Virus record (IMG/VR): IMGVR_UViG_3300032245_000936
Coordinates: 1-64,000 of that record
Length of the DNA stretch: 64,000 nt
Direction: 5' to 3' (one strand)
Origin: a virus
Below the pieces are notes generated by a model. The model made no database searches, was not told where the DNA came from, and saw only the letters and a list, made by a program, of their open reading frames with translations. Positions 43,666-60,315 of the stretch are shown here, piece after piece. The first letter of the stretch is position 1. Every line of letters begins with the position of its first letter. The position numbers and the translations under genes were made by a program.

Positions 43666-44196
43666 ATGAGCCAACAACAATTCATTGACAATCTAGTAAA
43701 CAATGTAGACCAGCTGATTGAGGAATATCAGCACAACAAAGCGCAGGGTAGGAAAACATTTGCACTACCCGACTGGAGTCCAGAAAGTGTACCTGTACAA
43801 GAATGGCAGGCTGTTGCGCTCTGGTGGAAATACAAGCCCTGGGCTGTTTATCAAAAGTGGTATCCGTTTACCACTTCATTGGTCAAAGATGGTCCCACAC
43901 ACCGTGCAACAGGTCACTTGATTCTTAAACCGCAGTCCAAGACTCCTAAGCACCGGCACCTAGACTGGGGCAACAAGATTATCCTACACATTCCACTGAT
44001 CATTCCCAAAGGTGATGTTGGATTCTGGATTGATGGTAAAATACATCGATGGAAAGTAGGCGAAGCCTTCGCCTTTGACATTACCAAGGAACACTATGGT
44101 TTCAACAACACTGATCAAGAACGTGTGTTGTTGGTTATGGAATTTGATGCAGAGCTATGGGGCGATACTCTTAGGCAGTACCAGACTCTAGATTGA
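43666..44196 (+). CDS. Asp/Asn beta-hydroxylase-like 2OG-Fe(II) oxygenase
   Basis: L.P.S....H, ILHIPL, WKVGEAFAFD...H...N...ERVLL. Confidence 0.75.
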   Translation: MSQQQFIDNLVNNVDQLIEEYQHNKAQGRKTFALPDWSPESVPVQEWQAVALWWKYKPWAVYQKWYPFTTSLVKDGPTHRATGHLILKPQSKTPKHRHLDWGNKIILHIPLIIPKGDVGFWIDGKIHRWKVGEAFAFDITKEHYGFNNTDQERVLLVMEFDAELWGDTLRQYQTLD

Positions 44197-45016
44197 TTTT
44201 TCGCATACGATTAAAGTATTCAACTTTTTCACGTATTTTGTTGTACTTAGGGTCGCTGATCAAGTGCTCGTGCCAGAAGTAAACATTCTTTAATTCATCA
44301 TCAGTAAACTTGGCAACAGGCGTGTACCATTCACCAATTTGATATTTTTGTACAGGGCGAATAGCACCAGTATCCTCGTGGTAGATTTTGTCTACAATAT
44401 ATTCTTCTAGATAGTATTCGCCTGTTTGCGCTCGCACAGCCAACCAATCTGGATCATGTGCTCCGTTTAGAATCTCTGCAACACCTTTCCACCAGCGTTG
44501 ATAAAATCCACTGTCTTTGCGGGTGATCATGAATCCTGTGTCAAACGGATTGTCCCAACCAGGTTCCAGTGTGCGTTGTTGTTTTGTACAGTAATCATCA
44601 TATTGACCGCAAACTGTTTGTCCACAGTTTACCAACGCCTCGGGCAATGGCTGAATAAGATTCATGTCTAGATCAATCTTAATAAGAACATCAACATCCA
44701 ATCGTTGTTCAAACAACATGCCCACGTAGGGAATGTTTAAAAAACCACTGGTAAAAGTTTCAGTGACAGGATGATATTCTTCAATGTATTCTACATTTAT
44801 TGCTTTGAGTTGATCAATGGTATCTTGACTAATAGTGTTGTGTGTTGGGCACAGAACATATATTGGAATGTCTTTTAACCATCCACCATTTTTGCGCCAG
44901 GCCTCAAAACACAAAATAGCTTCGTCTTCGAACTTTCTTTCAAACTGTACAATGTTCAATTGATTATTCAAGTTCCTGTTGTTGCCTTCAATGGCTGCTA
45001 CCAGTGCATACTTCAT
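44171..45016 (-). CDS. GT-A fold glycosyltransferase-like protein
   Basis: IKIDLDM (DxD), FDTGFMI. Confidence 0.55.
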   Translation of the reverse strand: MKYALVAAIEGNNRNLNNQLNIVQFERKFEDEAILCFEAWRKNGGWLKDIPIYVLCPTHNTISQDTIDQLKAINVEYIEEYHPVTETFTSGFLNIPYVGMLFEQRLDVDVLIKIDLDMNLIQPLPEALVNCGQTVCGQYDDYCTKQQRTLEPGWDNPFDTGFMITRKDSGFYQRWWKGVAEILNGAHDPDWLAVRAQTGEYYLEEYIVDKIYHEDTGAIRPVQKYQIGEWYTPVAKFTDDELKNVYFWHEHLISDPKYNKIREKVEYFNRMRKINLESGTA

Positions 45017-45627
45017 ATAGAGTACTCCTTGAGACAAGGAATATCTCTGGCATCAGGGTATGCTTGCCATGCCCCAATCTTGTAGTCCTGCGTTAGCTGA
45101 TTCAACAGTAATATACCTTTGGCTGCTTCGTCGGGGCTCATGTTCATATGATATCCTAGAGTGATATGCTCCATCTCACTGGCAACTCCTAGCGAGCTAT
45201 CTCTACCATCATGTCGCATACGCTTTAGTGCTTGGTACATTGTATGATCGTCAAGCAGTATTGCTCCACCTTTACCAATTGGCAAACTTTTCTTCTGCTG
45301 GAAACTCAAGCACTGAACTTCGCCAGCACGATACATATTGGGTCTAAACCCCACAGCGTAGTCATACACGTTGGTATTGCCAATTTGATAACTGCCAACC
45401 CATTCTTTATATTCTAACCACACATTGTAGCCATAGTTAATCAGTGTCATGGGAACACTGATGTATGTGTGTGCAGGCAATACTATTTTGGCTTTGCGTT
45501 TCTTTTGATATTCCAATGCCAACAGTATTGCATTGGTACAGCGATCCACTGCCACAGCATAAGGAGCCCCTGTGTACTCGCATAAACGTTGTTCAAATAG
45601 TTCAATAAAATCGTTGTTGTTTTTCAT
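45013..45627 (-). CDS. Short DegT/DnrJ/StrS PLP aminotransferase
   Basis: AVAVDRCTNA, SFQQKKSLPIGKGGA, HDGR, GYHMNM. Confidence 0.85.
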   Translation of the reverse strand: MKNNNDFIELFEQRLCEYTGAPYAVAVDRCTNAILLALEYQKKRKAKIVLPAHTYISVPMTLINYGYNVWLEYKEWVGSYQIGNTNVYDYAVGFRPNMYRAGEVQCLSFQQKKSLPIGKGGAILLDDHTMYQALKRMRHDGRDSSLGVASEMEHITLGYHMNMSPDEAAKGILLLNQLTQDYKIGAWQAYPDARDIPCLKEYSI

Positions 45628-46535
45628 ATGATGTAACGTAGGTCCTTTTTGTTGCAGAGGTCAACTACTGCTCTATCACAATACTTACACACATCATACT
45701 GCATGTTCAAAATTTTATCATAGTCCCCGTCCCAGGGTTTACCCTTGCTGGCTTCTAAAAATAGATAGCATGGATACACCTTGCCATGAATGTCCACTTG
45801 TTGACTTTTGTTTTCCCAGCTCATGCAATAGGCTTTGCCTTTCACTGGACTAGCATACTTGGCTCGAGCAAATTTGTCCATTTGTTCGTAGTCTTGTAGT
45901 TTATGCGGGTTTGGGCGCAGACGTTCAATACCAGAAGTGTCCACGTAGTTGCTTTTGTCTTTGAGCAAAAAGGTTTCAGTCCAATACACATGACTAAACT
46001 CGCTTACCATTTGTTGAAACTCAGGTCCATCAAAATCATCACTGTTGTAATGAAAGCGAATACATTGTGCATAATCGTTTTTGTTTGCGCCACGGAACGC
46101 ACGAGCATTGTCAAGTATGTTTTTTAATTTGGTGTTCTTGCGATACACCTCATGCAGTTCTTGTGTGCTACCGCAGATGCTAAAGTAAACTCTATCATCA
46201 TCTCTCATAAGGGTTGAAAGTTCTGCCCACCATTCAGGCTTGTGCGTATCTCCATTGGTACAAATTTCAATTCGTACATTACGTGCCTTGATGTATCGTA
46301 CAAGCTCAAAAAAATGTTTATACAATGTTGGCTCGCTTATGGTGCCAACAAGCCTGACCCATACTAGATCTGGAAATGTTTCCAACTGTGCAATTACGTC
46401 AGCAATAGGACGCACCAGGTTGTCTGGATAATGCTCTTGGTATACAGTATAGTTTCTGTAACATAACTGACATTGTGCATTACAGAGAGTGGTGAGCTCT
46501 AACTCAATGTCTTCAACTCGAGGCATGGTCAGCAT
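45624..46535 (-). CDS. Radical SAM enzyme, group A (Twitch-like C-terminus)
   Basis: CNAQCQLC, GTISEP, TNG; C..PC..CKYC. Confidence 0.9.
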   Translation of the reverse strand: MLTMPRVEDIELELTTLCNAQCQLCYRNYTVYQEHYPDNLVRPIADVIAQLETFPDLVWVRLVGTISEPTLYKHFFELVRYIKARNVRIEICTNGDTHKPEWWAELSTLMRDDDRVYFSICGSTQELHEVYRKNTKLKNILDNARAFRGANKNDYAQCIRFHYNSDDFDGPEFQQMVSEFSHVYWTETFLLKDKSNYVDTSGIERLRPNPHKLQDYEQMDKFARAKYASPVKGKAYCMSWENKSQQVDIHGKVYPCYLFLEASKGKPWDGDYDKILNMQYDVCKYCDRAVVDLCNKKDLRYII

Positions 46536-47443
46536 ACAAAATCCAGTCCCATTTTTTCTATAAAAGTGCGTGTTCGTTTTTCACACAAGAAACAGTCAGG
46601 AAACTTGAATTTCAAGATGTCGCTATAATCAAAGTCTTCTTCTGCAAAGTAATCTTGTTCAAACTCTGCATGTACATAACAAGCACTTACTTGTCCATAC
46701 TGGTTGATATACACTTTCTTTTGTTCTAGACTGCGGCACTGAATATCATAGGTGTTGCCATCGTCTGGTAGTGGACGATTTGCAAACAGTTGTTTAATAG
46801 TCTTATCTCGCACTGCCATTGGTTTTACATTGATAGGGAATTTCTTTTCATAGTCATTCTTACGTCGGACCCCTTCAGTTTCAACATACATTATGTTAGA
46901 GAACTCGTTGATTATTTGTTGCATTTCAGCTGACTTTAAGTCTTCGCTATTATACTCAAATCGTATATGTTGCATCCAGTCGTTACCTAGACCATTTTTA
47001 CGCACTGCTCTTGCATGTTCAATAATTTGTTGTAGATCACTGCCCACACGATATATTTCATGTAGCTGTTGTGTGCTACCACAGATGGTAAATGCTACCA
47101 TACATTTTTTAGGTATGCGTTTACCCAGTGCCTCCCACCATTTTGCATCGTGAGTGTTGCCGTTGGTAAACAACTCGTAGTAAATATCACGACTGTTCAG
47201 GTAATCAATGAACTCATCAAAGTATTTGTACATTGTGGGCTCGCTTACTGCACCTGCAATAAAGAAACGTTTGAGTCCTGTATATTGATCTAATTGTTTA
47301 ATTACTTCCTCAATTGGTCGTATATTCTTGCCAACTAGATGTTGTGCGTGTGAATAATTGCGAGTGCATAACGGACACTCTAAATTGCACAGACCAGTCA
47401 GGTCCATTTCAATTTCTTCAATCTCAGACTTCTTAACTATCAT
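46529..47443 (-). CDS. Radical SAM enzyme, group A
   Basis: CNLECPLC, GAVSEP; C..AC..CFLC. Confidence 0.9.
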   Translation of the reverse strand: MIVKKSEIEEIEMDLTGLCNLECPLCTRNYSHAQHLVGKNIRPIEEVIKQLDQYTGLKRFFIAGAVSEPTMYKYFDEFIDYLNSRDIYYELFTNGNTHDAKWWEALGKRIPKKCMVAFTICGSTQQLHEIYRVGSDLQQIIEHARAVRKNGLGNDWMQHIRFEYNSEDLKSAEMQQIINEFSNIMYVETEGVRRKNDYEKKFPINVKPMAVRDKTIKQLFANRPLPDDGNTYDIQCRSLEQKKVYINQYGQVSACYVHAEFEQDYFAEEDFDYSDILKFKFPDCFLCEKRTRTFIEKMGLDFVC

Positions 47444-48354
47444 ACCATTCGCTCCATACCGTTGCGTTCTAGTATACTGGTTGTCATGCTTTCGCACTCG
47501 TAACAGAAGTCAAATTCAAACTTGTGAATCTCAGAGTAGTCATTGTGATCAAACGGGGTCTTCTTGTACACCCGATACAAGAAGCAAGGAAACTCTTCTC
47601 CAAATTGGTTTATGCTCAAAAACTTTGTTTCGTAACTTTTGCAACGCATCTTACAACTTGCACCATTGGCATGTCTTTTTAAGATGCTGTTTTTTATTGT
47701 GTTATATTTTTCGCCGAGCTTGCCGTGCATCTTGATTGCTGTGTCTTCTTTGATAATTCCAAACCGCTCTTGGTATGGACTAGAATCAATCAACCATGGA
47801 TTGCTAAACTCTGCGATAATTGCCTTCATTGCATCAGACTCAAGATCTTTTGCATTATATTCAAATCGTATATGCTGGCACCAATCATTACACTTGCCGC
47901 TTTGACGAAATGCTGTTGCATGATCACGTATCTGTTGCAGACTACTGTTAACACGATATACTTCATGTAGCTCTTGTGTGCTACCACAGATAGTAAAGTA
48001 AACTCTATCTGTTGCCGCAAAGATATCACCCAATGCTTTCCACCACTCTGGCTTGTGCGTATTACCGTTTGTATACAGTTCAATTTTAATACCTCGGCCC
48101 ACTAGATATTTTACCAGTGGAACAAAGTCTTTGTACATGGTAGGTTCGCTAACGCTGCCGGCCATGCAAACAAATTTCAGGTTAGGAAATGTGTCAAGTT
48201 GGGTTATCCATTCATCAACAGGTCTGATATTCTTCTGCACTAGATGTTGTGCATTTTCATATGATCGTAGACAGAGAGGGCAGTCTAGGTTACAGGTGCC
48301 TGTAAGCTCTAGCTCAACTTCAAGTATTTCTGCTCTGTCTAATCCTAGTTTCAT
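47440..48354 (-). CDS. Radical SAM enzyme, group A
   Basis: CNLDCPLC, GSVSEP; C..PC..CYEC. Confidence 0.9.
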   Translation of the reverse strand: MKLGLDRAEILEVELELTGTCNLDCPLCLRSYENAQHLVQKNIRPVDEWITQLDTFPNLKFVCMAGSVSEPTMYKDFVPLVKYLVGRGIKIELYTNGNTHKPEWWKALGDIFAATDRVYFTICGSTQELHEVYRVNSSLQQIRDHATAFRQSGKCNDWCQHIRFEYNAKDLESDAMKAIIAEFSNPWLIDSSPYQERFGIIKEDTAIKMHGKLGEKYNTIKNSILKRHANGASCKMRCKSYETKFLSINQFGEEFPCFLYRVYKKTPFDHNDYSEIHKFEFDFCYECESMTTSILERNGMERMV

Positions 48355-48974
48355 AGATAAATTATGCTGTTAAAATCTTTTTCTTTAAAAACACGCTTGA
48401 TTGAGTCTGGCGTCATGCGTTTATGATACATGGTCAACATGCGATGCTTGTTACTATTACTTAACGTCGGACCTGATATACCCAATGGCATTGTAGCGGC
48501 AACCAAATTGAACTGTATGTCAGGGTACTTATCCAAAAATGTGCCCAAACGATCAAAGTTTAAATCTGTGACAATCAGTAGGTACTGCAAATTTATAGTA
48601 GCATCAATGATAATATCGTCATCTAAATTGATGTCTTCACTGCAATGATATAGTATGGTATCAAAACGAGGCAGTAAATCGCGATAGCGTTTGATAAACA
48701 ATCCGTTGGTATTGATACTAGGGCGGCAACCTTTTGCCTCCAATGCGTCTAGTATGTAAACAATGTCCTCACGTTTCATTGTACCAACTTCGCCACCGCT
48801 GAGTGTTACATTATAGCCAGGTATTATTTTATCTATTTTTTCTTTAACCTGATCCATGCCAAGTTTAGGACGATTGTGTGTGTCCACACAGCAATAGTTA
48901 CAATGCCATTGGCATACCCATGTAACCACAAGTTCAATTTCTTTTTCTTTTGCTTGTATTGCCATCAGTGCCAC
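48351..48974 (-). CDS. Minimal radical SAM enzyme, group B
   Basis: CQWHCNYC, GGE, NTNG, YHCSE. Confidence 0.9.
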   Translation of the reverse strand: MALMAIQAKEKEIELVVTWVCQWHCNYCCVDTHNRPKLGMDQVKEKIDKIIPGYNVTLSGGEVGTMKREDIVYILDALEAKGCRPSINTNGLFIKRYRDLLPRFDTILYHCSEDINLDDDIIIDATINLQYLLIVTDLNFDRLGTFLDKYPDIQFNLVAATMPLGISGPTLSNSNKHRMLTMYHKRMTPDSIKRVFKEKDFNSIIYL

Positions 48975-49546
48975 CTTGCCACAACTGTAACAAACTCATC
49001 CAGGCTATATGGATGAACCTTGTGCCCGTGTTGGTTGAAGAAGTCCATCATTAGATTCAAACTAATCTTGCGTTGACTACGTACATCAGGCAACAACAAG
49101 AACTTGATATGAGGATACTTCTCTATCATTTTATGTATGCTTCCATCCAGGAAGTTTGTATTGGTTACTACCAATGCGTAGAACACATGATCTAATTCTA
49201 AATTAGGAAACTCTATGTCGTCGGGCAGATACTCCACGCAATGATAATGTATCTTTCCAAACTCATGTACCAATGGCATGTGTTGCCTGAAGAACAACCC
49301 GTTTGTCAACAGGTCAATTATACAGTTCTTGTCCTTGAGCAGTTTTATTATCAACTCCAACTGCTCACGTTTCAGTAACCCAGGCTCTCCTCCGCCAAAC
49401 GTGACCTCTGTGTCGGGTTCAATGGCCTTTACCCTGCGTAGTACTTCTTCAAAAGGCAGCTCTGGTTGGTTGTGTATATCTGCAACACAATAGTCACAGT
49501 GCCAGTTGCACTTGTTGGTTAAAGGCAATTCAATTTCTTTTTTCAT
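48965..49546 (-). CDS. Minimal radical SAM enzyme, group B
   Basis: CNWHCDYC, GGEPG, LTNG, YHCVE. Confidence 0.9.
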   Translation of the reverse strand: MKKEIELPLTNKCNWHCDYCVADIHNQPELPFEEVLRRVKAIEPDTEVTFGGGEPGLLKREQLELIIKLLKDKNCIIDLLTNGLFFRQHMPLVHEFGKIHYHCVEYLPDDIEFPNLELDHVFYALVVTNTNFLDGSIHKMIEKYPHIKFLLLPDVRSQRKISLNLMMDFFNQHGHKVHPYSLDEFVTVVARWH

Positions 49547-50217
49547 CTCAATGCCTTTAACTTGCGGATATTGTTTACTTCCCAGCAACTGGTAATCAAA
49601 TGTAGATAGCTGTCAGGTGCAATACGATCTTTATACTGATTATATACTTTGAATCCATTGGCTCTGCTCAATCCTTTGCCAATTACATTATCTGCTCCAA
49701 ATACTAAAAATCTGATATCCGGATATTGATTGATATAAAAGTCCAAACGGTGCATGGTATCATCTGTGATTACCAATTGAAAATCAATTTTGGATATATC
49801 AACGTGCTCAGGAATCCAAATGTCATCATTGTCTAAATGTTCACTACAGTGATATAAAAAACTGTCTGGGATATGGCATAGATTTTTGTGTTTTTTAAAA
49901 AATGTTCCATTGGTGTTTACATTAACAAAGCATCCTTTATTCTTTAACTCTGTTAACACCCATTCCATAACAGCATGATCAATGAGCCCTGGCTCGCCAC
50001 CAGTTAATGCAACATCACTGTTTCCTGGTATTGCTTCAACTTTTTGTTTTATGTCATGATAGGTTACATCAGCTCTGTTGTGTGTGTCCTCAGAGCAGTA
50101 GTCGCAGAACCAATTACACTTATAGGTTAGGTACAAGGTATAACTGTTAGCTCCATCAAGTCCTCCTTGAAAGAATTCATAGTTGTCGTGCTTTACTCTT
50201 GGCAATTGATTGCTCAT
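49543..50217 (-). CDS. Minimal radical SAM enzyme, group B
   Basis: CNWFCDYC, GGEPG, NTNG, YHCSE. Confidence 0.9.
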   Translation of the reverse strand: MSNQLPRVKHDNYEFFQGGLDGANSYTLYLTYKCNWFCDYCSEDTHNRADVTYHDIKQKVEAIPGNSDVALTGGEPGLIDHAVMEWVLTELKNKGCFVNVNTNGTFFKKHKNLCHIPDSFLYHCSEHLDNDDIWIPEHVDISKIDFQLVITDDTMHRLDFYINQYPDIRFLVFGADNVIGKGLSRANGFKVYNQYKDRIAPDSYLHLITSCWEVNNIRKLKALR

Positions 50218-51266
50218 TTGTAAAACCCTTTTCTATAAAAATTTACCTGTGTGATTTTTTCACCCGGAGCCGGAGTCAGTACCACATCTTTGATCTGTTT
50301 CTCAACACCATCACAGATGTAATAATGTTTACACTCTAAGCAGTCCTTGGTTTTATAGTATGTGCGGTTGCGTTTGAATGCGGCTGCATCATACATGGCC
50401 TTGAGTGGATCAGCGCGATATGTTTCAGGATCGATGTCACCATTGTATACCGCAATATTCCAATCATATACATCATAGATATGTTGATAATAATTGCAAA
50501 CGTATTGTTCATAGCCTGTCATGAAGCAATAAGGTGTGTACCTTACGTTGATTTTTTTAACTTGATCTTTTAACAAATCAATGGCCTGATGTACATAAGG
50601 TGTAACTTCAGCGTAGTTGATAGTGTCTTGTTTGCCAGCATCGTCCCAATAGTTGAGAGTGAGAAAGTTCACTTCAAAGGGTTGTAGTTCTTGCATCAGT
50701 GCCACAAACTTTGTGGGCAAGGATTTGTAGTTCCGGTGAGTCACTGTGCAATTAACACGAACCAAAATGCCTAACTCATGTGCATTGTGTATGGCCTGGA
50801 CAATATTTTCAAAGCCCTTGCGATGACCTACTAATATGTTGTGAGACTCTTTGTCATAACCATGTACACTAAATAGGATTTCTTCTAGTCCGTGTTCTTT
50901 TGATTTTGCTAAGAATTCTTTATTGGCAAATTTGTACCCATTGCTCAGTGTACTGATTTTCAATCCATGCCCGCGGCAGTAGTCTAGTATATCAAACCAT
51001 TGCTTGTGAATACTGCTTTCTCCACCACTAAGGTCTACTTCTTTAATTCCACAAGCAATCAAATAATCAATGCGTTCTTTTATTTTTTCAAACTCAGTTA
51101 CTTCATCAAGCTGTGTTTTGTAATAGCAGAACTCACAACGATAGTTGCAATGTGTGCCAGTGTCTAGTTTGGCACGATTGCACATAGGCTCGTTACTATC
51201 AATCTGTAACTTATTGCTCAGCTCGTTGTATAGTCTCACGTTCAATCTCTTGGTATTGTTGGTCAA
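50214..51266 (-). CDS. Radical SAM enzyme with C-terminal CxxC-x5-C cluster motif
   Basis: CNYRCEFC, GGES; PYC...CLECKHYYICDG; start uncertain. Confidence 0.9.
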   Translation of the reverse strand: MTNNTKRLNVRLYNELSNKLQIDSNEPMCNRAKLDTGTHCNYRCEFCYYKTQLDEVTEFEKIKERIDYLIACGIKEVDLSGGESSIHKQWFDILDYCRGHGLKISTLSNGYKFANKEFLAKSKEHGLEEILFSVHGYDKESHNILVGHRKGFENIVQAIHNAHELGILVRVNCTVTHRNYKSLPTKFVALMQELQPFEVNFLTLNYWDDAGKQDTINYAEVTPYVHQAIDLLKDQVKKINVRYTPYCFMTGYEQYVCNYYQHIYDVYDWNIAVYNGDIDPETYRADPLKAMYDAAAFKRNRTYYKTKDCLECKHYYICDGVEKQIKDVVLTPAPGEKITQVNFYRKGFYK

Positions 51267-52056
51267 TTGGCTCTGGATCAGCCTGATATTTCTTTTTACT
51301 TGCCACCATCAATTTAAATGATGACACCGATTCTTTATAACAAGTCCTACTAAAACTACTGCAATGATTTAAACATATACTTTGGCTATCAAAGAACTTG
51401 TATCTAATAGGGTGCTCTAATGCTTCCTTTAGTGACACTGTGTTTAGATTTGCAAAGGCCAACTTATCATTATAAGGAACATTGTCTTTTACGAACTTAC
51501 AAAACATCACATCACCATTGGCCAATATCTTGGGCATACTGTGAAAATGGCATTTGAGTTTAGAGTTGAATTCTTCGTTTATTTTTGTGCCGGTGTAATT
51601 GAAAACATAGTTTCGATCGCGGCGCTCTAGGTTGTAACGTATACCGGCTGCATCAAGTTCATCAATTCGACGATGCACAATATCAAATAAATTTTTATCC
51701 ATGCCGGTTAGCTCTTTGAACTTTTCTGGAGTGTCACCATAATAACTGATACAGAATTTAATATTGGTCATACCAATTTTTTTCAGCTTCTCTACATTCA
51801 CTGCGGTTACATTGGTAAACACAATGGTGTATTTCATATGCGTGTTTACAAAATCAAGCATTTCATAAATGTCAGGATGCAGGAATGGTTCGCCTTTTGC
51901 AGGAATCAAATCAACTTCTGTTATGCCCATTGCCTTTGCTTCTAAAATAATTCTTTTGAATAATTCTAGATCCATATACTGCGGCTCGGTGATATCTTTG
52001 GCTTTGCAAAAATAGCATTTGAAATTGCAATACTCAATGATTTCTACCACTATCAT
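51211..52056 (-). CDS. Radical SAM enzyme (Twitch/SPASM-like)
   Basis: CNFKCYFC, GEPFLHP; C..GDVMFC..CLNHC. Confidence 0.9.
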   Translation of the reverse strand: MIVVEIIEYCNFKCYFCKAKDITEPQYMDLELFKRIILEAKAMGITEVDLIPAKGEPFLHPDIYEMLDFVNTHMKYTIVFTNVTAVNVEKLKKIGMTNIKFCISYYGDTPEKFKELTGMDKNLFDIVHRRIDELDAAGIRYNLERRDRNYVFNYTGTKINEEFNSKLKCHFHSMPKILANGDVMFCKFVKDNVPYNDKLAFANLNTVSLKEALEHPIRYKFFDSQSICLNHCSSFSRTCYKESVSSFKLMVASKKKYQADPEPIDQQYQEIERETIQRAEQ

Positions 52057-52946
52057 ATTATGCCTTTAAGGATGTCCACTATCTCATCATTGGGCTTTAG
52101 ATGGATGCTGTCAAACTTATAGTCAATATCCCAGCGTCTCCAATACAGTCCTAGATCTTCTGCCCAGTAATCTATATCATGATAAATTACCTCTTTGCTG
52201 TAGTATTTACATTCGGCTATGAAACGAGGCGAACAATCCCACTTTCTTTCAACTGGAGTGTACACATACGTGGTAAACTGTTCAAACAGATTGTCTACTG
52301 GTGGAAGTATAAACGTAATTCCAGTCACTGGAGTTGGTTGATTTTCTGCATTGGTAATTGCAACAATAGGTTTATTGTATCTTGCAAAGTCTGCCCAATC
52401 TTTTATATTGCGGCAGTTTTTGGTGGCATACAGCAATATTTGATTTTTGCTTTCGCCAATGGTTTTTAGTCGACTAAAGAGTATTTTCTTTTTATAGTTG
52501 ATTCCGTTGGTTTTGACAGGATCATACACACGGTCGTCTTGTAAGATGTAGACGTTGTGTTTATCATTGTCTTTGATCTCTTTGTTTCCGCAAGCAAAGA
52601 AGATGATGTTGTCAAATAACAGCGTGTACTCTTGTGCATTTACAATACCTCCGTCTGTAAATAAAATATTACGGCCACGTAACAAACTAGGGCGATTGCC
52701 GAACACAGTATGTGCGCGAATATCGGCAATTTCATGATCTGTAAAATCATACTTGTTTCTAATACTTCTCTCAACGGTTTGCCAATCAATATCTTCTCCT
52801 AAAAAAATTCCCACTTTAAAATGATCTTTGAGTACGTGATAGTAGTCAAATACTTCAAAGGTATGTCCACACACGCCGTGATTGTTGTTGCTCCAGGTAT
52901 AGCTGAGCCAGAGATCGTACGAAGGATCTAATTGTATTATTTTCAT
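52053..52946 (-). CDS. Hypothetical protein, possible GT-B-like; paralog of 52943-53731
   Basis: HGVCGHTFEVFDYY; DCSPRFIAECKYYSKEV. Confidence 0.5.
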   Translation of the reverse strand: MKIIQLDPSYDLWLSYTWSNNNHGVCGHTFEVFDYYHVLKDHFKVGIFLGEDIDWQTVERSIRNKYDFTDHEIADIRAHTVFGNRPSLLRGRNILFTDGGIVNAQEYTLLFDNIIFFACGNKEIKDNDKHNVYILQDDRVYDPVKTNGINYKKKILFSRLKTIGESKNQILLYATKNCRNIKDWADFARYNKPIVAITNAENQPTPVTGITFILPPVDNLFEQFTTYVYTPVERKWDCSPRFIAECKYYSKEVIYHDIDYWAEDLGLYWRRWDIDYKFDSIHLKPNDEIVDILKGII

Positions 52947-53731
52947 CTGAGCATTGCCTTTACCATTACATCATCTTGTGTCAGTGTGTAATTAGTCAGT
53001 CCGTTTTGTTTGATATCATTGTAGCGTAGCATGATTGAATCTACACCTGTATAGACTTCTTCTACTGTGACTTGTTTATTGTAATAAAATCCCTCAGGGA
53101 TGATTCGATTGTTGCTGTCTCGTACCACATGTATATAATGCACTGCATCAATCAATTCAAACAAGTTGCCTACTCCAGTGTGTTGCTTCTTTAGTATAAT
53201 TGGTCGATTGAACTGTTTCTTTAATCGTTCATATTCAAATCGAATAAACTGTGGGTCCAGACAACTCACAAACACGCCAGGTGCTGAAGTTGTTAGCTGT
53301 GGGAATATTTCAAAGTTTAATTTTAGATAGCAGAACACATCGTAGTATTGAAAATCATAGCTTCCGTAGTAGGTTACAGATCTTTGATTGCGGTAGCGGA
53401 ACCATTCGTGTTCTTCGTTGCTAAAACAATGTACTTCGTTGGTGAAAAACTCTCGGCATTGACGAAATGTATCAACATCCAGTACCAGAGTTCTGTCTAG
53501 ATCAAGTTGATAGAGTTCGGTGAGTTTGATTGGAACAATGCCGTCTGTGAAAATTTGATATTTTTGAGAAAGTATGTTTGCGACGAGGCGAAGATCGCCT
53601 TCTGTTATGCCTATAACATAAAATTGAACATCAGTATATTTTTGTAAAAACTTAAAATATTCAAAGCAGTAAAACAGAGTTCCGTTGATCTTGTTATGTG
53701 GTTTGTGTTTGTACACCACTCCAAGTTTCAT
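52943..53731 (-). CDS. Hypothetical protein, possible GT-B-like; paralog of 52053-52946
   Basis: KINGTLFYCFEYF; DSNNRIIPEGFYYNKQV. Confidence 0.5.
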   Translation of the reverse strand: MKLGVVYKHKPHNKINGTLFYCFEYFKFLQKYTDVQFYVIGITEGDLRLVANILSQKYQIFTDGIVPIKLTELYQLDLDRTLVLDVDTFRQCREFFTNEVHCFSNEEHEWFRYRNQRSVTYYGSYDFQYYDVFCYLKLNFEIFPQLTTSAPGVFVSCLDPQFIRFEYERLKKQFNRPIILKKQHTGVGNLFELIDAVHYIHVVRDSNNRIIPEGFYYNKQVTVEEVYTGVDSIMLRYNDIKQNGLTNYTLTQDDVMVKAMLR

Positions 53732-53732
53732 A

Positions 53733-54371
53733 TTAAAATCTTGCGTAGAAGTCTTCTAAAAAGTTTTGTTCTATTGTTTTAACTTCTTCTTGTGTGTTAG
53801 ACAATTTAATTGCAGTGCGGAATGCACTGAACTTTCTTTCTAGCTGTGCCACAGATTCAATTTCATCTTTGTAGTTTAGATAATCTTCTAACTTGGTAAT
53901 CAGTTTCTCGTCGCCGGTTTCAAGTATTTCCAAATACTTTTCTTCACGGTTGTCATTGGTGATGAAATATCCAGCATTGGCTAGATCGTTGTTGAGCATG
54001 ATAAATCCATACATGGTCAGCCCAGCAATCTTGGAAAGCTCTGGTGTAATCAACATGCGAATTTTTATCATGGCTGCATTTCTTGCTTCCTGGAGAGGGT
54101 CTGTTTCCATAAGGTCAATGACCTCAAACTCCCCGGGCAATACTTCCGTGGTTCTGAGAGTTTTACTGATATGAATAGTTTTGTTTTCAACCACTGCTTT
54201 TTTCATCATCTCAGCACTCATGTAACTGAGTTTGAGATATTTTTCTTGGTGGTCCGCCGGGGCATCTAATGTGTTGTTGACCACATTAGTTACCCGGTAG
54301 TAAGTGCCGCAGTCAATGACGTGGGCCAGATCGTAAAGCATTGTCATAATTGATTCCTCATTGTATACCAA
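53733..54371 (-). CDS. Hypothetical protein, possible fibre-assembly chaperone
   Basis: Directly follows the Cys-rich fibre-like gene; helical C-terminus IKLSNTQEEVKTI resembles DUF4376-type endings. Confidence 0.4.
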   Translation of the reverse strand: MVYNEESIMTMLYDLAHVIDCGTYYRVTNVVNNTLDAPADHQEKYLKLSYMSAEMMKKAVVENKTIHISKTLRTTEVLPGEFEVIDLMETDPLQEARNAAMIKIRMLITPELSKIAGLTMYGFIMLNNDLANAGYFITNDNREEKYLEILETGDEKLITKLEDYLNYKDEIESVAQLERKFSAFRTAIKLSNTQEEVKTIEQNFLEDFYARF

Positions 54372-54373
54372 AT

Positions 54374-55042
54374 TCAGATTGGTAAGAGTTTATAGTTCAC
54401 CATGTAAAATCCGCGAGCATCCTTCTTTAATGCTTGTTCATGTTTGGTTCCAACTAGTTCTTGAGCAATAACGCCAACATACTCTGTGGCTTTGTCCCAG
54501 ATATATGTCCAAGAATAGATATTCAGACCATTGCGTGTTTCAATGAACTTGATGTTTTCTTTGAGACGTTGATCACTGTAGTTACAACCGCAGTCGTTGT
54601 GACAACTACAAACGTTGTTACAGGAGCAGTCTGAATTACAAATACAATCTTGGCGAATTACATCGTAACGTGCTTTGAGCTCCGTCCAATGAGTAATCTG
54701 TACCTTTGTGCCTGCGGCCAGCGAAGCCGGAACTGTGGTCAGATATGCTACCATAGTACGAAGATTGTTGTATTGTCCTGACGTGGCTGTGGTTGCGCCC
54801 GGTGAAAATGCAGTTCCCTCATACAATGTGTATGGGCCGTAATCGCCATGAGAATCATAACGAGCAATCTCGTCACGAATACTGCTACGTAATAAATTTA
54901 TATCTGCGGCTGTTACCTTACCACCTTGAGCCCATTCATTACTCATGGTAATGGCTCTGTTAGTAGAGCAGCCAGGACGGTGATTTGAACAGGATGATGT
55001 GCCTGTTCCGTGGTCAGTGCAGTGTGAACCAGAGCATGCCAT
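54374..55042 (-). CDS. Cys-rich fibre-like protein with C-terminal Peptidase_S74 autocleaving chaperone domain
   Basis: N-terminal Cys/His cluster; three G..(V/T)x(A/I)...(N/T).L(R/K) repeats; CICNSDCSCNNVCSCHNDCGC; then SDQRLKENI...GVIAQE...VNY. Confidence 0.8.
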   Translation of the reverse strand: MACSGSHCTDHGTGTSSCSNHRPGCSTNRAITMSNEWAQGGKVTAADINLLRSSIRDEIARYDSHGDYGPYTLYEGTAFSPGATTATSGQYNNLRTMVAYLTTVPASLAAGTKVQITHWTELKARYDVIRQDCICNSDCSCNNVCSCHNDCGCNYSDQRLKENIKFIETRNGLNIYSWTYIWDKATEYVGVIAQELVGTKHEQALKKDARGFYMVNYKLLPI

Positions 55043-55046
55043 TTGG

Positions 55047-56222
55047 TTAAGTTCCTTCCATTTCTAATTGTTTTGCTTTTTCAGTAACAACTTGTAATTC
55101 GTTGTCAAGGTAGGATTGAACGGTTCTATCAATTTCACCAAATGCCTTAAAAAAGCCACACATGTTGTTTACCCAACGATCAGTCCAACGATCGAAGTAA
55201 TCTTCTTTTTTGCTATTGTCTAAACTGGACACTGGGCAAATCATACAAGTCGTAGCAACACAGCCTTTGCAAATATCTGAAACTGTACGAATTGGAATGC
55301 TGTATGTTTCACTCATCTTGGCTACGTCGTCAACAAAACTGTCTTGGTCAATACTACTGCCTCTCATGAGTTCTTTGTTTGGACTGTACAAAGATCCATG
55401 GCAAGCATAGCTTTGTCCATCAACGTCAATGGCGTGCATGTTGGCACCAGACGCACAGTGTACTTTTGTGTCGCCGCCGTCAAACCATGACATCAAATGA
55501 TGATTGTGCTCACGATAGAATTTGATTTCTTCTCGCGCAACCATTAACATTTCTTTTCTAAAATCTTCAATCATCTTAGGCAAGTCGCCAGATGGAATCT
55601 CATTCACATAATCAATTGTAGGAGCATAGGTCACTGTGATATTTCTACCAATGCTGTTTAGACGTTGGTGTAAATCACGGAAGTCTAACCAAGTCTTGTA
55701 AAGACCAGTCATGCTCTTGAGAGGAATGGTGCTTTTCAATGAGATGTTAATACCTTTACGTGCAAAGTATTCAATGTTCTCTACCACTGTGGAGCTGGTT
55801 GGTTTACCAGTGTGAGTTAAACGGAATTTGTCATTGATGTCTTTTCCGTCGTAACTGATTTGAATCTGTAGTTTGCTAGTATCTACTGCATCAAAAATAT
55901 CTTCTAGGCGCTTGCGGTTATAACCATTGGTGTAGATATGAAATTCAATCTCAGGATACTCATTGAATTCATTCATTACATCAATAATCATTTTACCATT
56001 TAGTGTTGGCTCACCACCCCAGAAGCTGATGTTCAAGCTGTCATATTTGTTGCGGAACCAAGGTGACTTTCTTAGTTCGTGAATACGCTGTTTAACTAGA
56101 TCTAGTTTGTCGTCTAGACGTTGTTTGTTGGTCTTCACACCCTCAAAGCAATAGGTGCAACCCAAGTTGCACAAAGCAGTGGTGGTGATTTCGATAGTAA
56201 ATTGTCCTAAACGTTCATTCAT
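55047..56222 (-). CDS. Radical SAM/SPASM maturase
   Basis: CNLGCTYC, FWGGEP, ISYDG; CASG..ACH..CKGC..CMICP..C. Confidence 0.92.
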   Translation of the reverse strand: MNERLGQFTIEITTTALCNLGCTYCFEGVKTNKQRLDDKLDLVKQRIHELRKSPWFRNKYDSLNISFWGGEPTLNGKMIIDVMNEFNEYPEIEFHIYTNGYNRKRLEDIFDAVDTSKLQIQISYDGKDINDKFRLTHTGKPTSSTVVENIEYFARKGINISLKSTIPLKSMTGLYKTWLDFRDLHQRLNSIGRNITVTYAPTIDYVNEIPSGDLPKMIEDFRKEMLMVAREEIKFYREHNHHLMSWFDGGDTKVHCASGANMHAIDVDGQSYACHGSLYSPNKELMRGSSIDQDSFVDDVAKMSETYSIPIRTVSDICKGCVATTCMICPVSSLDNSKKEDYFDRWTDRWVNNMCGFFKAFGEIDRTVQSYLDNELQVVTEKAKQLEMEGT

Positions 56223-56452
56223 TGTGTGTCTTTCCCCATGGTCATAATTTCATCTAAAATGCTCATCATACGATCATCTGAAACTTTTTCTTCTTCAGGT
56301 TGAATAATCAACGCCATTTCAGCTGCCATGTGTAAAAGTTTATCGGATTCGTCCTGAAATTCTTGCACATTTGACAAGTGTTTGGATGCTTCCAGTAGAT
56401 GATTGCTGGCATAAAACAGCGCCTTGTTCATCTTTTTAATGCTAGTTGACAT
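56219..56452 (-). CDS. Small helical protein between two SPASM enzymes
   Basis: GAGG RBS; overlaps both neighbours. Confidence 0.65.
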   Translation of the reverse strand: MSTSIKKMNKALFYASNHLLEASKHLSNVQEFQDESDKLLHMAAEMALIIQPEEEKVSDDRMMSILDEIMTMGKDTQ

Positions 56453-57449
56453 TCTCAATTTCCTCTTTAAGTTGTTGTATAAAGTACGGATTGCTACCTA
56501 GCTCTTGTGACATCCTACTTACTTGCCTGTAAGTGTATTTATATATGCTACAGAGCTCCACGATAGGACCTTTGTTTTTGATTTGCTCAAATAAACAGCC
56601 TTTTTCGCAGTAGTTTTTTACTTCGCAGGATTGACACTCGGGCATTTGTGCATATTTGGGTATTTCTGCAATCAGCTCGGGTGCTTTGGTAAAACGTGTG
56701 CAGGGCACAATCTTGTTGTCGCTGAACATGAATATGTCTGTTCCTGCGCCGCAGTTGTGTTTTTCTAATCCTTTAACTTTGTAATTTAAAAAATGGCGAA
56801 GATAAAATGTGATGAAAAACGGCATCTGCTCATGCGGATTTGCGATGTACCAATCAAACAGTTCTTCGATACCTGCTTTGAGTTTTTCCACACTAGCAGA
56901 ATCCCATACATCAACGTCACGTACCAGCGTAAGCTCTGGATTCACTCCAAAGTGCTTTTTTATAAACAAATGATTTTCCAATAGGTTATAGCAACCCTTG
57001 TAAATCATTGTGTGCATACGTAGGTTGGGTATCTGTTTGAATAGATCTGCTTTTTCTAAAAATCTATGTGAGGTTTTGCGACCGTTTAACTGTAGCCTAT
57101 ATTTGTCTTGCCACAGTCCGTCAAAACTCACAGATGTTTCAATTTGTTCTTTAACTAGGTACTCCAGTATTTCATCTGTTAACAACAACCCATTCGTGGG
57201 CATGAATAATTTTACATTGCCATCTTCACGTACACCATCTACTATACGCTGAATCAAATCAAATTGCAACAGGGGCTCACCCCCAAAAAAATCAATCTTG
57301 ATACGTTCAGTCGGGTGTTGTTCCCGCATCTTTCGAAACTCATCAAGATACATGTCTACATCAATGGCTTTTTTGCTCCATTTATCCACGTCACAGTAGG
57401 TGCAATTTAGATTGCACTTTTCTGAAAGGACCACAAGCAAGGTTTTCAT
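56442..57449 (-). CDS. Radical SAM/SPASM maturase
   Basis: CNLNCTYC, FFGGEPLL, VSFDG; CGAG..PC..CQSC..CEKGC..C. Confidence 0.92.
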   Translation of the reverse strand: MKTLLVVLSEKCNLNCTYCDVDKWSKKAIDVDMYLDEFRKMREQHPTERIKIDFFGGEPLLQFDLIQRIVDGVREDGNVKLFMPTNGLLLTDEILEYLVKEQIETSVSFDGLWQDKYRLQLNGRKTSHRFLEKADLFKQIPNLRMHTMIYKGCYNLLENHLFIKKHFGVNPELTLVRDVDVWDSASVEKLKAGIEELFDWYIANPHEQMPFFITFYLRHFLNYKVKGLEKHNCGAGTDIFMFSDNKIVPCTRFTKAPELIAEIPKYAQMPECQSCEVKNYCEKGCLFEQIKNKGPIVELCSIYKYTYRQVSRMSQELGSNPYFIQQLKEEIENVN

Positions 57450-58183
57450 TTTCTATAGATCTCGTTTAATTTTAATACAGTATTTAAGAGCTCTATGTCA
57501 AACATATCTGCTAGTGCTTTTGTATCTTTAGGCAAGCACGGGCCACCAAAGCCTCGCTGGCCATCTGGGCCCGGAACTTGAAAATGATGTGTGCCCATCC
57601 ATGGCTGCATTTTTAACACATCAACGATACTGTTGTAGTCAGCGCCCAGCTCATTGGCAACATCATATATGGCATTCATGTATGTTACTTTGAGTGCATA
57701 AAAACTGTTCATTGTGTATTTGGCCAATGCCGCAGTTTTTATGTCTGTGAATTTTACTGTGCTCATGTTCACATCAGAGTATTTGCGATACAGATCTGCC
57801 ACACGCTGAGTTTTGTCTGTGTCACCACCTAGTAGTACAAAAGGCGGGTTAATAAAATCATCTGCGGCTGTTGCACGGCTTAAAAACTCGGGGTTGTAAA
57901 CAATGTCGTATTGTTCTAGCACATGTGGAAGTGCTGTGCTTTTTACAACAACAATTCCTTGGTAATTGGTACTTTTAATACGTTCCAATGTTTCACGTAG
58001 TATTTGATAGTTGCTATGATCAGTAGGAGTAGGCACACATACAAAAACAGCGTCAGGATTTTCCCCACACATATATTCTATGCTGAGATCGTTGTATGCA
58101 GGGTCAGAGAGCATCACTGCGGTTTTACTAAACCCAGTTGCCACCGCCTTGCCAACCATTCCGTAACCAATTATTCCGATCAT
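57446..58183 (-). CDS. ugd: UDP-glucose/GDP-mannose 6-dehydrogenase family, C-terminally truncated
   Basis: GYGMVG, CVPTP, KST, NPEFL, GFGGPCLPKD. Confidence 0.88.
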   Translation of the reverse strand: MIGIIGYGMVGKAVATGFSKTAVMLSDPAYNDLSIEYMCGENPDAVFVCVPTPTDHSNYQILRETLERIKSTNYQGIVVVKSTALPHVLEQYDIVYNPEFLSRATAADDFINPPFVLLGGDTDKTQRVADLYRKYSDVNMSTVKFTDIKTAALAKYTMNSFYALKVTYMNAIYDVANELGADYNSIVDVLKMQPWMGTHHFQVPGPDGQRGFGGPCLPKDTKALADMFDIELLNTVLKLNEIYRK

Positions 58184-58251: not shown

Positions 58252-60315
58252 TTATCGAATTGTAACAGCGGCTTCAACTAGTTCTTCGCCTGATGTTACT
58301 TTTTCTTGCAGAGTACGTCCAATTACATTAAATGCTGTGGCTTCACCGGGTTTGGCAGCACGGGCCACTCCATTTCCTGCACTTACCAAACGGCCATTGC
58401 GTTCTACTGGGCCAACCACACGCACAGGAACTCGTCCTGCTAGTGCAACTGGAAGACCATCTGAACCTGCATTCAGCACATGTCCTGGATTGGTAGAAAT
58501 TACGCCAAACACATTTTCACTTGCATCGTCGTTCTCTTGAGTAATTTCAGCTGAGCCGCCAATTCTTACTAGTGTACCTGGTGCGTAGTCTATGTCACTT
58601 GCATAACGTTCTGCCAAGTCAGCGTATCTTGCTTGAATTGACACACCGTAGATGTTGTTCCACCATGCGCCTGAGCTACCTAGGTTAACTGCGGCATTAC
58701 CAGCTGGCAATGGAGCAGAAACAAATGTTGCTGTACCGCCAACTGTCAATGTGGTTAACTGTGCTCCACTGGCATAAATTACACCAAAACGACTTGTGGA
58801 TTGACCAATGTCGCCTGACAGGTTAGCACCAAAGTGTGGAAGGCTAGTAACAGTCACCGCACCAGAGTAGATGTTGGCAAAAGTACGCAATGGAGTTCCA
58901 AGTTCGTACTGGTTATCTGTAGATGGCTTGAGCGTACCTGTTAGGTCCAATGAGCCATCTCTGTTTAACTTGTTTGCAGTATGGTTACTGACTTCACCTT
59001 GTAGAGCATATACGTTAGAGAACATACTGCCAGCTGGACCTGGTACTGCACCAGCACCTGGTTGTCCAAGGTTACTTAGTACGTTGGCATGAATTGCAGA
59101 AACGTTTGCCCATAAAGTCAAAAGGTTTCCTGCAAATGTATCGTTGGTTGTGAAACGTGCGTATGCGTTTGCGGTATATCCGCCTTGAGCAATCGCTAAC
59201 AACGTTGGGTTATTAAAGCCCAACTGTGATTGTAACAAACGAACGTTACCATACATGGCTGTGTATGAACCAGTTGTGGTCAATACGTTAGCAACAATAG
59301 TACCAATACTGGTATTCAATGTGTTAACGTTTGATGCCAAGTAGGTTTGTAATGTGCTTGCTAGGTTGTCAACATAGTTCTTGGTTGCAACACCTAGACC
59401 AGTTTGTGGGTCGGCCAACACTGTGATCAAACCAGATGATTTGTCAACTGTTAATACGTTAACTGTGGCACCAGCCGCGTTGTCAGGTTTGGATTGAATT
59501 ACTAAACCGTTACCACGTACACGACTGAATAGGTTAACGTTTTGACCAGCGACTGTGATTGTGAAGTCTGTCACTGTACCGCCAAGTTCTTGAATGGCCA
59601 AACCGTCTGGTGTTTGAATAACCAATTGGTTATTCAAAACTGCATTGGTCTTGGTTAAGAACTGGTTAGCTGGGACTCCGCCTAGATAAGCAGAGTTGTT
59701 GGCATTTTCATAATACAACAACGATGGAACGTTGTCAGAATTTAGGTTAAAGCCCGGCTTAACAGTTGCAAAGCCTGGCAATGTTGTTTGTGGTGTAAAT
59801 GCAGAGTCTTTTGACAAGATAGCAACCAAACGGTTCTGCACATAGAACTTGACAACCACGTGCGGAAATAGTGTGGTATCAATGATTGTGTCAGCAACCG
59901 CACCAGATGTACCAGTGGTTGTGGTAAAGCTAGGGCCAATAATAACCCAGGCTGCACCAGAGTATACTTTTAACTGCTGATTAACTGAGTCAAACCACAA
60001 GTCACCAGCAACTGCATTGGTTGGTTGATCTGCTAGACTCTGGGCACCAGAAATTGACTTCCACGTACCATATGTGTCGTAGACTTGTAACACTCGTGTG
60101 TCTGATTTCCACCATAATTGTCCTACTAGCGGATATAATGGTGCGCTTCTGTTAGAGAAGTTTTCTAGCAGTTTTACAAAATTCTCGTTCAGGAACGTGC
60201 CATAACCAGCATAGTTCTTTCCGATCAGTGTTAGACTGGTAGTGATGTTATTGGTCTGACCGTCTGCGACCACTGTCAACGGCGTTCCGTCTGATTTTAC
60301 TATGTTATAGCTCAT
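58252..60315 (-). CDS. Tail fibre/baseplate-associated virion protein with Peptidase_G2-like chaperone C-terminus
   Basis: N-terminal LIGKNYAGYG...ENF..GQLW module; ATKNYVD; C-terminal YADLAERY...GVIST...VALAGRVPV. Confidence 0.8.
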   Translation of the reverse strand: MSYNIVKSDGTPLTVVADGQTNNITTSLTLIGKNYAGYGTFLNENFVKLLENFSNRSAPLYPLVGQLWWKSDTRVLQVYDTYGTWKSISGAQSLADQPTNAVAGDLWFDSVNQQLKVYSGAAWVIIGPSFTTTTGTSGAVADTIIDTTLFPHVVVKFYVQNRLVAILSKDSAFTPQTTLPGFATVKPGFNLNSDNVPSLLYYENANNSAYLGGVPANQFLTKTNAVLNNQLVIQTPDGLAIQELGGTVTDFTITVAGQNVNLFSRVRGNGLVIQSKPDNAAGATVNVLTVDKSSGLITVLADPQTGLGVATKNYVDNLASTLQTYLASNVNTLNTSIGTIVANVLTTTGSYTAMYGNVRLLQSQLGFNNPTLLAIAQGGYTANAYARFTTNDTFAGNLLTLWANVSAIHANVLSNLGQPGAGAVPGPAGSMFSNVYALQGEVSNHTANKLNRDGSLDLTGTLKPSTDNQYELGTPLRTFANIYSGAVTVTSLPHFGANLSGDIGQSTSRFGVIYASGAQLTTLTVGGTATFVSAPLPAGNAAVNLGSSGAWWNNIYGVSIQARYADLAERYASDIDYAPGTLVRIGGSAEITQENDDASENVFGVISTNPGHVLNAGSDGLPVALAGRVPVRVVGPVERNGRLVSAGNGVARAAKPGEATAFNVIGRTLQEKVTSGEELVEAAVTIR

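Follow-up and report, generated by a model that had tools for sequence, protein, structure and literature searches.

The window analysed here, a stretch of 64,000 nucleotides that makes up the first 64 kb of the 112,657-bp IMG/VR virus record IMGVR_UViG_3300032245_000936, encodes on its minus strand (positions 54374–55042) a protein of 222 amino acids, followed by a stop codon, with 12 cysteines. In this protein an exactly periodic Cys array is followed immediately by a Peptidase_S74 domain, and the gene lies next to those of two radical S-adenosylmethionine (rSAM) enzymes, which we refer to as rSAM_A and rSAM_B. Judged from the sequence, the reading that we favour, and to which we assign slightly less than an even chance, is that the two enzymes cross-link the array, probably by thioethers from Cys to Asn or Asp, and that the S74 domain then cuts itself off between Tyr155 and Ser156. 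Thioether formation is favoured because three features stay constant across the superfamily to which the protein belongs, namely Cys density, adjacency to a pair of SPASM-type rSAM enzymes and the presence of Asn or Asp at the third position after Cys (+3), and also because, by analogy, PapB and CrpA provide precedents.

In the course of events that we propose, rSAM_A and rSAM_B would modify the Cys array before it folds, and possibly the N-terminal Cys motif too, the most likely reaction being one that joins the sulfur of Cys to a side-chain carbon of the Asn or Asp at +3 to give ranthionine-type thioethers. The S74 domains of three chains would subsequently associate, align the ends of the arrays and cut between Tyr155 and Ser156 by means of a Ser156/Lys161 dyad, yielding a mature protein of about 16.7 kDa that ends in a redox-inert, cross-linked array, and an S74 fragment of 7.9 kDa. 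The gene product would serve a jumbo phage as a small accessory component of its tail-fibre module and is presumed to be present in the virion. A jumbo phage as the replicon that carries the gene is pointed to by the CheckV completeness of the record, which is only 32%; a T4-type DNA polymerase is also encoded in the window.

A first-pass annotation of the same DNA had described the array as a strictly periodic series of cysteines placed exactly at an S74 cleavage site, and had listed lack of conservation in homologues and lack of an S74 match among the findings that would speak against it. The description was accurate: residues 133–153 (54584–54646) form four CxC pairs with an exact period of six residues, (CxCxxx)3-CxC, which are followed by Asn154 and Tyr155 and then by the segment S-D-Q-R-L-K-E-N-I, whose first residue is Ser156 and whose lysine is Lys161. 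Together with N-Y, the array (residues 133–155; 54578–54646, minus strand) constitutes the predicted mature C-terminus. A word-indexed search yielded 147 homologues, all metagenomic and about 136–300 amino acids long, and 118 of these, with 42–68% identity to the window protein, were aligned to assess conservation. Cys133, Cys135, Asn136, Asp138, Cys139, Cys141, Asn142, Cys145, Cys147, Cys151, Cys153 and Tyr155 are invariant in all 118 sequences, the eight array cysteines being among them. Ile134, Val144, Gly152, Asn154 and the S-D-x-R-L-K motif are each found in at least 90% of the sequences, and Ser156, Asp157, Arg159, Leu160 and Lys161 in at least 113 of them. No DNA-level tandem repeat was found beneath the array by Tandem Repeats Finder, indicating that the period is held at the protein level. 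Five of the eight array cysteines have an Asn or Asp at +3 (C133-N136, C135-D138, C139-N142, C147-D150 and C151-N154). Across 19 arrays of different types this was the case for 167 of 274 cysteines overall, and in nearly all arrays no other offset was more frequent than +3.

The gene for rSAM_A (55047–56222, minus strand) lies directly upstream of that for the Cys protein, and its product combines a Radical_SAM domain with a full seven-Cys SPASM domain; rSAM_B (56442–57449, minus strand) is a second radical SAM/SPASM enzyme. Both match the Pfam Radical_SAM family, and the 3+7 cysteines (CxxxCxxC plus the full SPASM set) are invariant in 34 sequences of rSAM_A and 28 of rSAM_B. For both enzymes the best NCBIfam match is the ranthipeptide maturase PapB (E 3e-25 for rSAM_A and 5e-29 for rSAM_B), which leads the other families by about 20–27 bits; these others comprise QhpD, HxsB, CcpM, SCIFF, anaerobic sulfatase maturase, CXXX-repeat maturase and TIGR04463. 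The solved structure nearest to rSAM_B is that of CteB (5wgg/5why, E 4e-13). In the repeated CXXXD motifs on which PapB acts, Cys becomes linked to an acidic residue further downstream; the substrate Cys is bound by an auxiliary cluster of the enzyme, and the acceptor must be C-terminal of the Cys (PMC12373016). The Cys-rich protein CrpA receives ranthionine links from a SPASM rSAM enzyme, and a C-X-X-Q/D motif has been noted for it (PMC13692751). In the Atlas, 23% of the members of a structural neighbour cluster carry PF27846, the rSAM-target CXXX repeat, which we take as a lead only.

The first-pass annotation had also tied the Cys protein to the neighbouring SPASM enzymes, and gene order strongly supports this link. 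A search with rSAM_A returned 70 loci, 41 of which have a full-length homologue (27–78% identity), and in 37 of these 41 the Cys-array protein adjoins rSAM_A; the exceptions are locus L092 and three Campylobacter phages of CP220 type. In every viral locus with a full-length member of the Cys-protein family the order is tail-fibre gene, UDP-glucose-dehydrogenase-like gene, rSAM_B, a small open reading frame (ORF) termed orf79, rSAM_A, Cys protein, p212, p262, p297 and further rSAM genes, and the part of it made up of fibre gene, rSAM_B, small ORF, rSAM_A, Cys protein and p212 persists down to about 27–30% rSAM_A identity.

The same enzymes might perform other rSAM chemistry, namely formylglycine formation from Cys, cyclophane formation at H/Y-x-D/N triplets, or methylation, and the N-terminal motif bears on the first of these. 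This motif (residues 1–29; 54956–55042, minus strand) reads M-A-C-x-G-x-H ... C18-x-x-H-R ... C25-x-x-N, and the Cys/His cluster that had been noticed there earlier proved to be a genuine feature of the family: among the 118 aligned sequences Cys18 and Cys25 are present in 116 and Arg22 and Asn28 in 115, residue 21 is His in 104 and Asn in 13, and Cys3 and Cys8 are retained in 98 and 96, respectively. Cys18 with Arg22 at +4 is thus nearly invariant, a pair that we take to resemble loosely the C-x-P/A-x-R motif of sulfatases, and rSAM_A matches the anaerobic sulfatase maturase family TIGR03942 (E 4e-14) and has as its nearest solved structures ChlB and then an anaerobic sulfatase maturase (4k36/4k37). 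However, the residue at +2 of Cys18 is Gly, Asn or Ser and never Pro or Ala. Cyclophane formation would be in keeping with the matches of rSAM_B to HxsB and to the cyclophane-forming YhhB, and with position 148, which is restricted to His, Tyr, Asn and Phe and is followed by N-D; on the other hand, the trait common to the array types is Cys density and not aromatic residues, and the lead of PapB in the family scores holds for both enzymes. We consider such other chemistry improbable.

With regard to the C-terminal part, residues 156–222 (54377–54577, minus strand) constitute a minimal Peptidase_S74 domain, of the intramolecular chaperone and autocleavage (ICA) type. Residues 156–196 match PF13884 at model positions 1–49 (E 6.5e-7; score 30 bits, gathering cut-off 22), as the first-pass annotation had expected, and virion and tail-fibre families of PHROG match this part too. 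Ser156 and Lys161 are each found in 115 of the 118 homologues, the exceptions being truncated forms. In endoNF (S911/K916) and MyRF (S587/K592) the dyad residues are likewise five apart and the cut falls N-terminal of the Ser (PMC8326128), and the motif of S156/K161 matches these dyads, an equivalence that is based on the motif and not on a structural superposition. An AlphaFold2 model shows the domain as beta-rich (predicted local distance difference test score, pLDDT, about 88–95) with strands at residues 161–170, 173–180 and 183–190. Its sole structural match, a weak one, was the MyRF ICA domain (7dc3; Z 3.4, root-mean-square deviation 2.0 Å over 52 residues, 23% identity); PDB searches by sequence, run with the family profile and with just the S74 part, returned no chain of a solved S74 or ICA domain. 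The predicted cut between Tyr155 and Ser156 is further supported by natural relatives that have no S74 domain: they stop at ...C-N-Y plus 0–2 residues (L012, L017, L073, L077, L101, L135, P0113 and P0117), which is where a cut would leave the chain. Moreover, the junction C-N-Y-S-D, consisting of the last Cys, N-Y and the Ser, is present in 56 of 84 superfamily representatives with the Ser-Lys motif.

ICA domains cut only as trimers, and they sit directly under triple beta-helical stalks for whose folding they are needed (PMC8326128). This arrangement offers a quite unlikely alternative in which no enzyme is involved: the S74 domain would fold the array into a narrow triple beta-helix lined with Cys, possibly with inter-chain disulfides that form after lysis. 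C-x-C(-x-C) would make all cysteines of a strand point the same way, N-x-D or N-Y-A would provide the turns, and the width of the prism would follow from the number of Cys per repeat (one, two or three). Such a core is at odds with the 45 of 146 representatives that have no S74 domain at all (see below) and with the monomer model, in which the array adopts no confident fold; it also leaves the strict adjacency to SPASM rSAM genes unaccounted for.

The low confidence of the array in that model (pLDDT below 50 for residues 137–154) may also be interpreted in terms of metal, as the model is a metal-free monomer. In this alternative, which we regard as unlikely, the S74 domain would gather a trimer in which inward-facing CxC pairs bind metal or an Fe-S cluster along the axis; in another form of it, each chain would hold a metallothionein-like thiolate cluster; in either form the rSAM enzymes would have a different target. 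The beta domains of metallothioneins resemble the CxC-x3-CxC spacing. CxC at fixed spacing mirrors the HxH motifs that bind octahedral iron in trimeric fibres such as T4 gp37 (PMC11705849), Fe-S clusters are known in tail-tip proteins ([4Fe-4S] in lambda gpL; PMC10721106), and the place of S74 domains below trimeric stalks, together with their cleavage as trimers only, would fit as well (PMC8326128). What a metal-bearing tip does not account for are the two SPASM maturase-like genes that flank the protein across the whole superfamily, the invariant Asn and Asp between the cysteines, and the interchangeability of four-, six- and seven/eight-residue repeats. Thiolate sites on a free virion would in addition be exposed to oxidation, and many members lack the S74 domain that would trimerise them.

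The C-terminal ends of the wider superfamily show how far the S74 domain belongs to the design. With a profile of residues 1–155, 942 cluster representatives (clusters at 50% identity) were found at E≤1e-3, none of them from a cultured phage, and 408 of them at E≤1e-10. Among the best 146 of the 942, 67 end in a 12-residue Ser-Lys stub, 45 end at the array and have no S74, 17 carry the whole S74 domain, 16 have another tail and one has no array. Longer members differ only in N-terminal extensions or a longer S74. In the split form the Cys protein ends in the 12-residue stub S-D-x-R-L-K-x-x-I-x-Y-x and the next ORF, of 84–103 amino acids, matches PF13884 above the cut-off from model position 15–20 to the end, including the C-terminal helix; examples of a stub with a separate ORF are L080:5172-5965, L083:7071-8056, L084:7123-8098, L090:7159-8040, L093:7085-7989 and L105:7873-8684. 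The first-pass annotation had suggested a precursor with a built-in follower protease. An S74 domain at the end of the array is indeed there, but it is not obligatory, since it is whole in only the 17 representatives mentioned. As read from these sequences, the S74 domain is an accessory for folding and cutting, present in some members and absent from others, and not the core of the design.

The array itself is equally variable. Besides the six-residue CxCxxx type, the superfamily contains CxCxCNY(A) repeats of seven or eight residues in 4 to more than 10 copies, and four-residue CHSN/CHSD repeats. Distant loci keep the M-A-C-x-G-H start, which recurs throughout the superfamily, as well as the helical domain and the place after rSAM_A, while the array changes; in L091, for instance, the helical domain is followed by four-residue repeats of CHSN/CHSD type. 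Tandem duplicates of the Cys-array gene follow a single rSAM_A in L085:7134-8278, L089:7135-8283 and L106:8257-9479. The copies in these three loci have up to 35 Cys each, in seven/eight-residue CxCxCNY(A) repeats, and the second copy in L085 is without the helical middle domain. Repetitive cores of modified peptides usually vary in array type, copy number and gene duplication. It seems conceivable, although we hold this broader claim to be a little more doubtful than that for the window protein, that the whole tail-module superfamily of 942 clusters undergoes a maturation like that of ribosomally synthesised peptides with post-translational modifications (RiPPs), in which SPASM-dependent stapling would be followed by S74 trimming in cis or, where the domain is split, in trans. 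The N-terminus encoded by L086:7153-7674, M-A-C-T-G-H-C-x-x-C, fits the CxxxCxxC pattern of rSAM enzymes and can mislead rSAM counts based on this motif; the fit is probably a coincidence.

A precursor-like layout, with the helical domain as leader, the array as core and S74 as self-removing follower, and the tandem copies in L085, L089 and L106 would also suit a natural product that is released as a peptide and is no part of the virion. In contrast to what such a product would call for, the scan of the module genes turned up neither a protease that could free the core nor a transporter, and the module, which contains a chaperone domain of fibre type, usually comes after a tail-fibre gene. We therefore judge a released peptide to be very improbable.

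Several observations weigh against cross-linking by thioethers, the reading that we nevertheless prefer. The first concerns the enzymes: PapB scores 89 and 101 bits for rSAM_A and rSAM_B against a cut-off of 340, SCIFF 48 and 62 against 425, and TIGR04463 50 against 525; all of these lie well short of the curated thresholds, so that the scores assign neither enzyme to a named maturase family. Neither rSAM enzyme has an N-terminal RiPP recognition element (RRE), for which there is no room because the CxxxCxxC motifs begin at residues 12–18, and no leader peptide is evident in the Cys protein. The second concerns the acceptor, as PapB takes acidic acceptors only (PMC12373016) and the residue at +3 is here mostly Asn. 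Thirdly, thioether rings and a Cys-lined triple beta-helix would be mutually exclusive, because residues i and i+3 face opposite sides of a strand. The S74 domain of the window protein is also small: it has only 67 residues, and the chain ends at residue 222 after the last strand without a C-terminal coiled-coil helix, which in MyRF drives trimerisation (PMC8326128); such a C-terminal helix is present in the relatives L011 and L079 and in the split S74 ORFs. Furthermore, eight additional rSAM genes as well as sugar-nucleotide and glycosyltransferase-like genes are found in the neighbourhood, so that a different substrate is conceivable for the rSAM pair. Finally, neither tblastn of the protein nor megablast of 14 kb against a collection of phages gave a match in a cultured phage.

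Comparison with known systems helps to place the protein. With the ICA/S74 domains of endosialidase endoNF, K5 lyase, the T5 L-shaped tail fibre, GA-1 gp12 and the eukaryotic MyRF it shares PF13884 and a Ser and Lys five residues apart, and with the phage systems among these also the place at the C-terminal end, directly after a segment that is expected to be folded. It differs from them in that the domain caps a 155-residue protein rather than a long fibre or spike, in that the upstream segment is a Cys array and not a known triple beta-helix, and in that most relatives have the domain absent or split into the 12-residue stub and an ORF. With PapA/PapB (freyrasin) and SCIFF/CteB it has in common a SPASM rSAM enzyme beside a substrate with repeated motifs of Cys plus acceptor, but here the substrate would be a folded phage protein of 155 residues, whereas theirs is a short leader-core peptide, and the motif is C-x-x-N/D, mostly with Asn, in contrast to the CXXXD of PapA. 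A further parallel may be drawn to CrpA/CrpC of Methanococcus voltae, in which a protein of at least 100 amino acids with a Cys-rich, repetitive C-terminal region adjoins a SPASM rSAM enzyme (PMC13692751); rSAM_A matches the CrpC family TIGR04463 (E 2e-13). The archaeal system is, however, cellular, has a 17-residue repeat and an enzyme with a predicted RRE, and is without S74 or phage context (PMC13692751). By analogy, the window system would work like a ranthipeptide or CrpA-type maturation, whereas its enzyme scores and its lack of leader and RRE set it outside these families.

Two further systems show looser resemblance. Both rSAM enzymes match the CXXX-repeat maturase TIGR04115 (about E 5e-14 to 7.5e-14), but the array has period six and not four, and the window protein gave no match to a Pfam CXXX family even at E≤10, in a copy of Pfam that may not include PF27846. 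The CXXX-repeat radical-SAM target system is to our knowledge itself only predicted. The parallel with the metal sites of T4 gp37 and lambda gpL is that ligands recur periodically in a two-residue motif (x-C-x-C against x-H-x-H) within a tail-module protein that is presumably a trimer; compared with gp37, the array has Cys in place of His (CxC, with no HxH) and rSAM genes alongside, and no similarity to gp37 or gpL in sequence or fold was found.

Our literature searches found nothing on rSAM enzymes with phage fibre modules, phage ranthipeptides, CXXX repeats, fusions of a Cys array to S74, or split S74 domains. The Cys protein may thus be the first phage tail-module protein to be matured like a modified peptide natural product. 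So far, rSAM/SPASM cross-linking has been described for short peptides and, since 2026, one archaeal protein, and S74 for long phage fibres and spikes. If our reading is right, no earlier case would be known of a virion-associated protein cross-linked by radical-SAM enzymes, nor of an rSAM substrate with a follower domain that removes itself, and RiPP enzymology would be joined to virion assembly across hundreds of phage lineages. Phages would then harden a small tail-module protein by redox-inert thioether staples or, alternatively, by an unusual Cys-metal core. The split variants, in which the Ser-Lys "cable" and the remainder of the domain reside on separate polypeptides, allow the S74 mechanism to be studied as a natural experiment. 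Together with rSAM_A and rSAM_B, the Cys protein makes a putative substrate-enzyme pair that is directly testable in E. coli, and cassettes of CxCxxx or CxCxCNY with their maturases could become tools for protein stapling.

The region between the N-terminal motif and the array (residues 30–132; 54647–54955, minus strand) is a compact helical domain. In the AlphaFold2 model of the whole protein, which was built from the family alignment and has a mean pLDDT of 81.5, this domain reaches about 84–96, with helices at residues 45–63, 88–99 and 116–131. The three short repeats pointed out earlier in this region are real, as hhalign aligned them pairwise in register with probabilities of 63–84%; they are of strand-helix type, and each of them begins a helix in the model. 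Foldseek of the model against the PDB gave no match at E≤0.001, and a wide VIA-align search gave generic helical matches only for the middle domain, the best being IglD (Z 6.0) and a BARA domain (Z 5.6). The domain is accordingly without a clear relative of solved fold. The public gene call P0001 (190 amino acids) begins at Met33 and thereby loses the conserved N-terminal Cys/His motif (window 54947–55042); the true start is Met1 and not Met33, as shown by the homologues (147 were obtained at E≤1e-3), whose similarity to the query starts at its residue 1.

The only match in 185,579 species genomes was locus L135 (MEQL01000015.1), a 52-kb contig from a groundwater metagenome-assembled genome (MAG) labelled Bdellovibrionales. 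Its module consists of rSAM_B, a small ORF, rSAM_A, a Cys protein of 150 amino acids that ends at the array, and p212. The contig probably stems from a phage and was binned with the MAG, or else represents a prophage. The cultured phages that have an rSAM_A homologue are only CP220, CPt10 and CP21 (L094, L095 and L104), at about 27% identity; no Cys-array gene was found downstream of rSAM_A in these three. In CP21 the rSAM gene is annotated as two pieces.

The remaining genes of the module are less readily interpreted. A small acidic protein that looks helical by eye is encoded by orf79 (56219–56458, minus strand) between the two rSAM genes; it gave no family match. Its position is kept in L002–L010, L017, L073–L077 and L135, and small ORFs are found there in more distant loci too. 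Orf79 was considered as an RRE and rejected on its helical look and the lack of a family match. Downstream of the Cys protein lies p212 (53733–54371, minus strand); in most related loci its gene comes next after that for the Cys protein or, where S74 is split, after the separate S74 piece. Its AlphaFold2 model (pLDDT 89) matches generic helix bundles in the PDB, and its BFVD matches are uncharacterised phage proteins, a few of them with DUF4376 or tail-fibre-assembly names, at weak E-values. The operon as a whole (44171–58183, minus strand) contains ten ORFs with Radical_SAM matches, one of which, at 27 bits, is below the cut-off of 29.5, and the ten include two trios of paralogues. It also contains a short UDP-glucose-dehydrogenase-like gene, a 204-residue piece of a DegT aminotransferase, and the paralogues p262 and p297.

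The tail-fibre gene at the other side of the module (58252–60315, minus strand) encodes a protein of 687 amino acids with PHROG tail-fibre matches. Its C-terminal domain (about residues 510–685) is encoded upstream of rSAM_B or of the UDP-glucose-dehydrogenase-like gene in many loci, including distant ones. The domain has a Y-A-D-L-A-E-R-Y motif and a weak match, below the cut-off, to Peptidase_G2 (E 0.005), which is another type of autoproteolytic chaperone. In related loci the domain is sometimes found as a short separate ORF.

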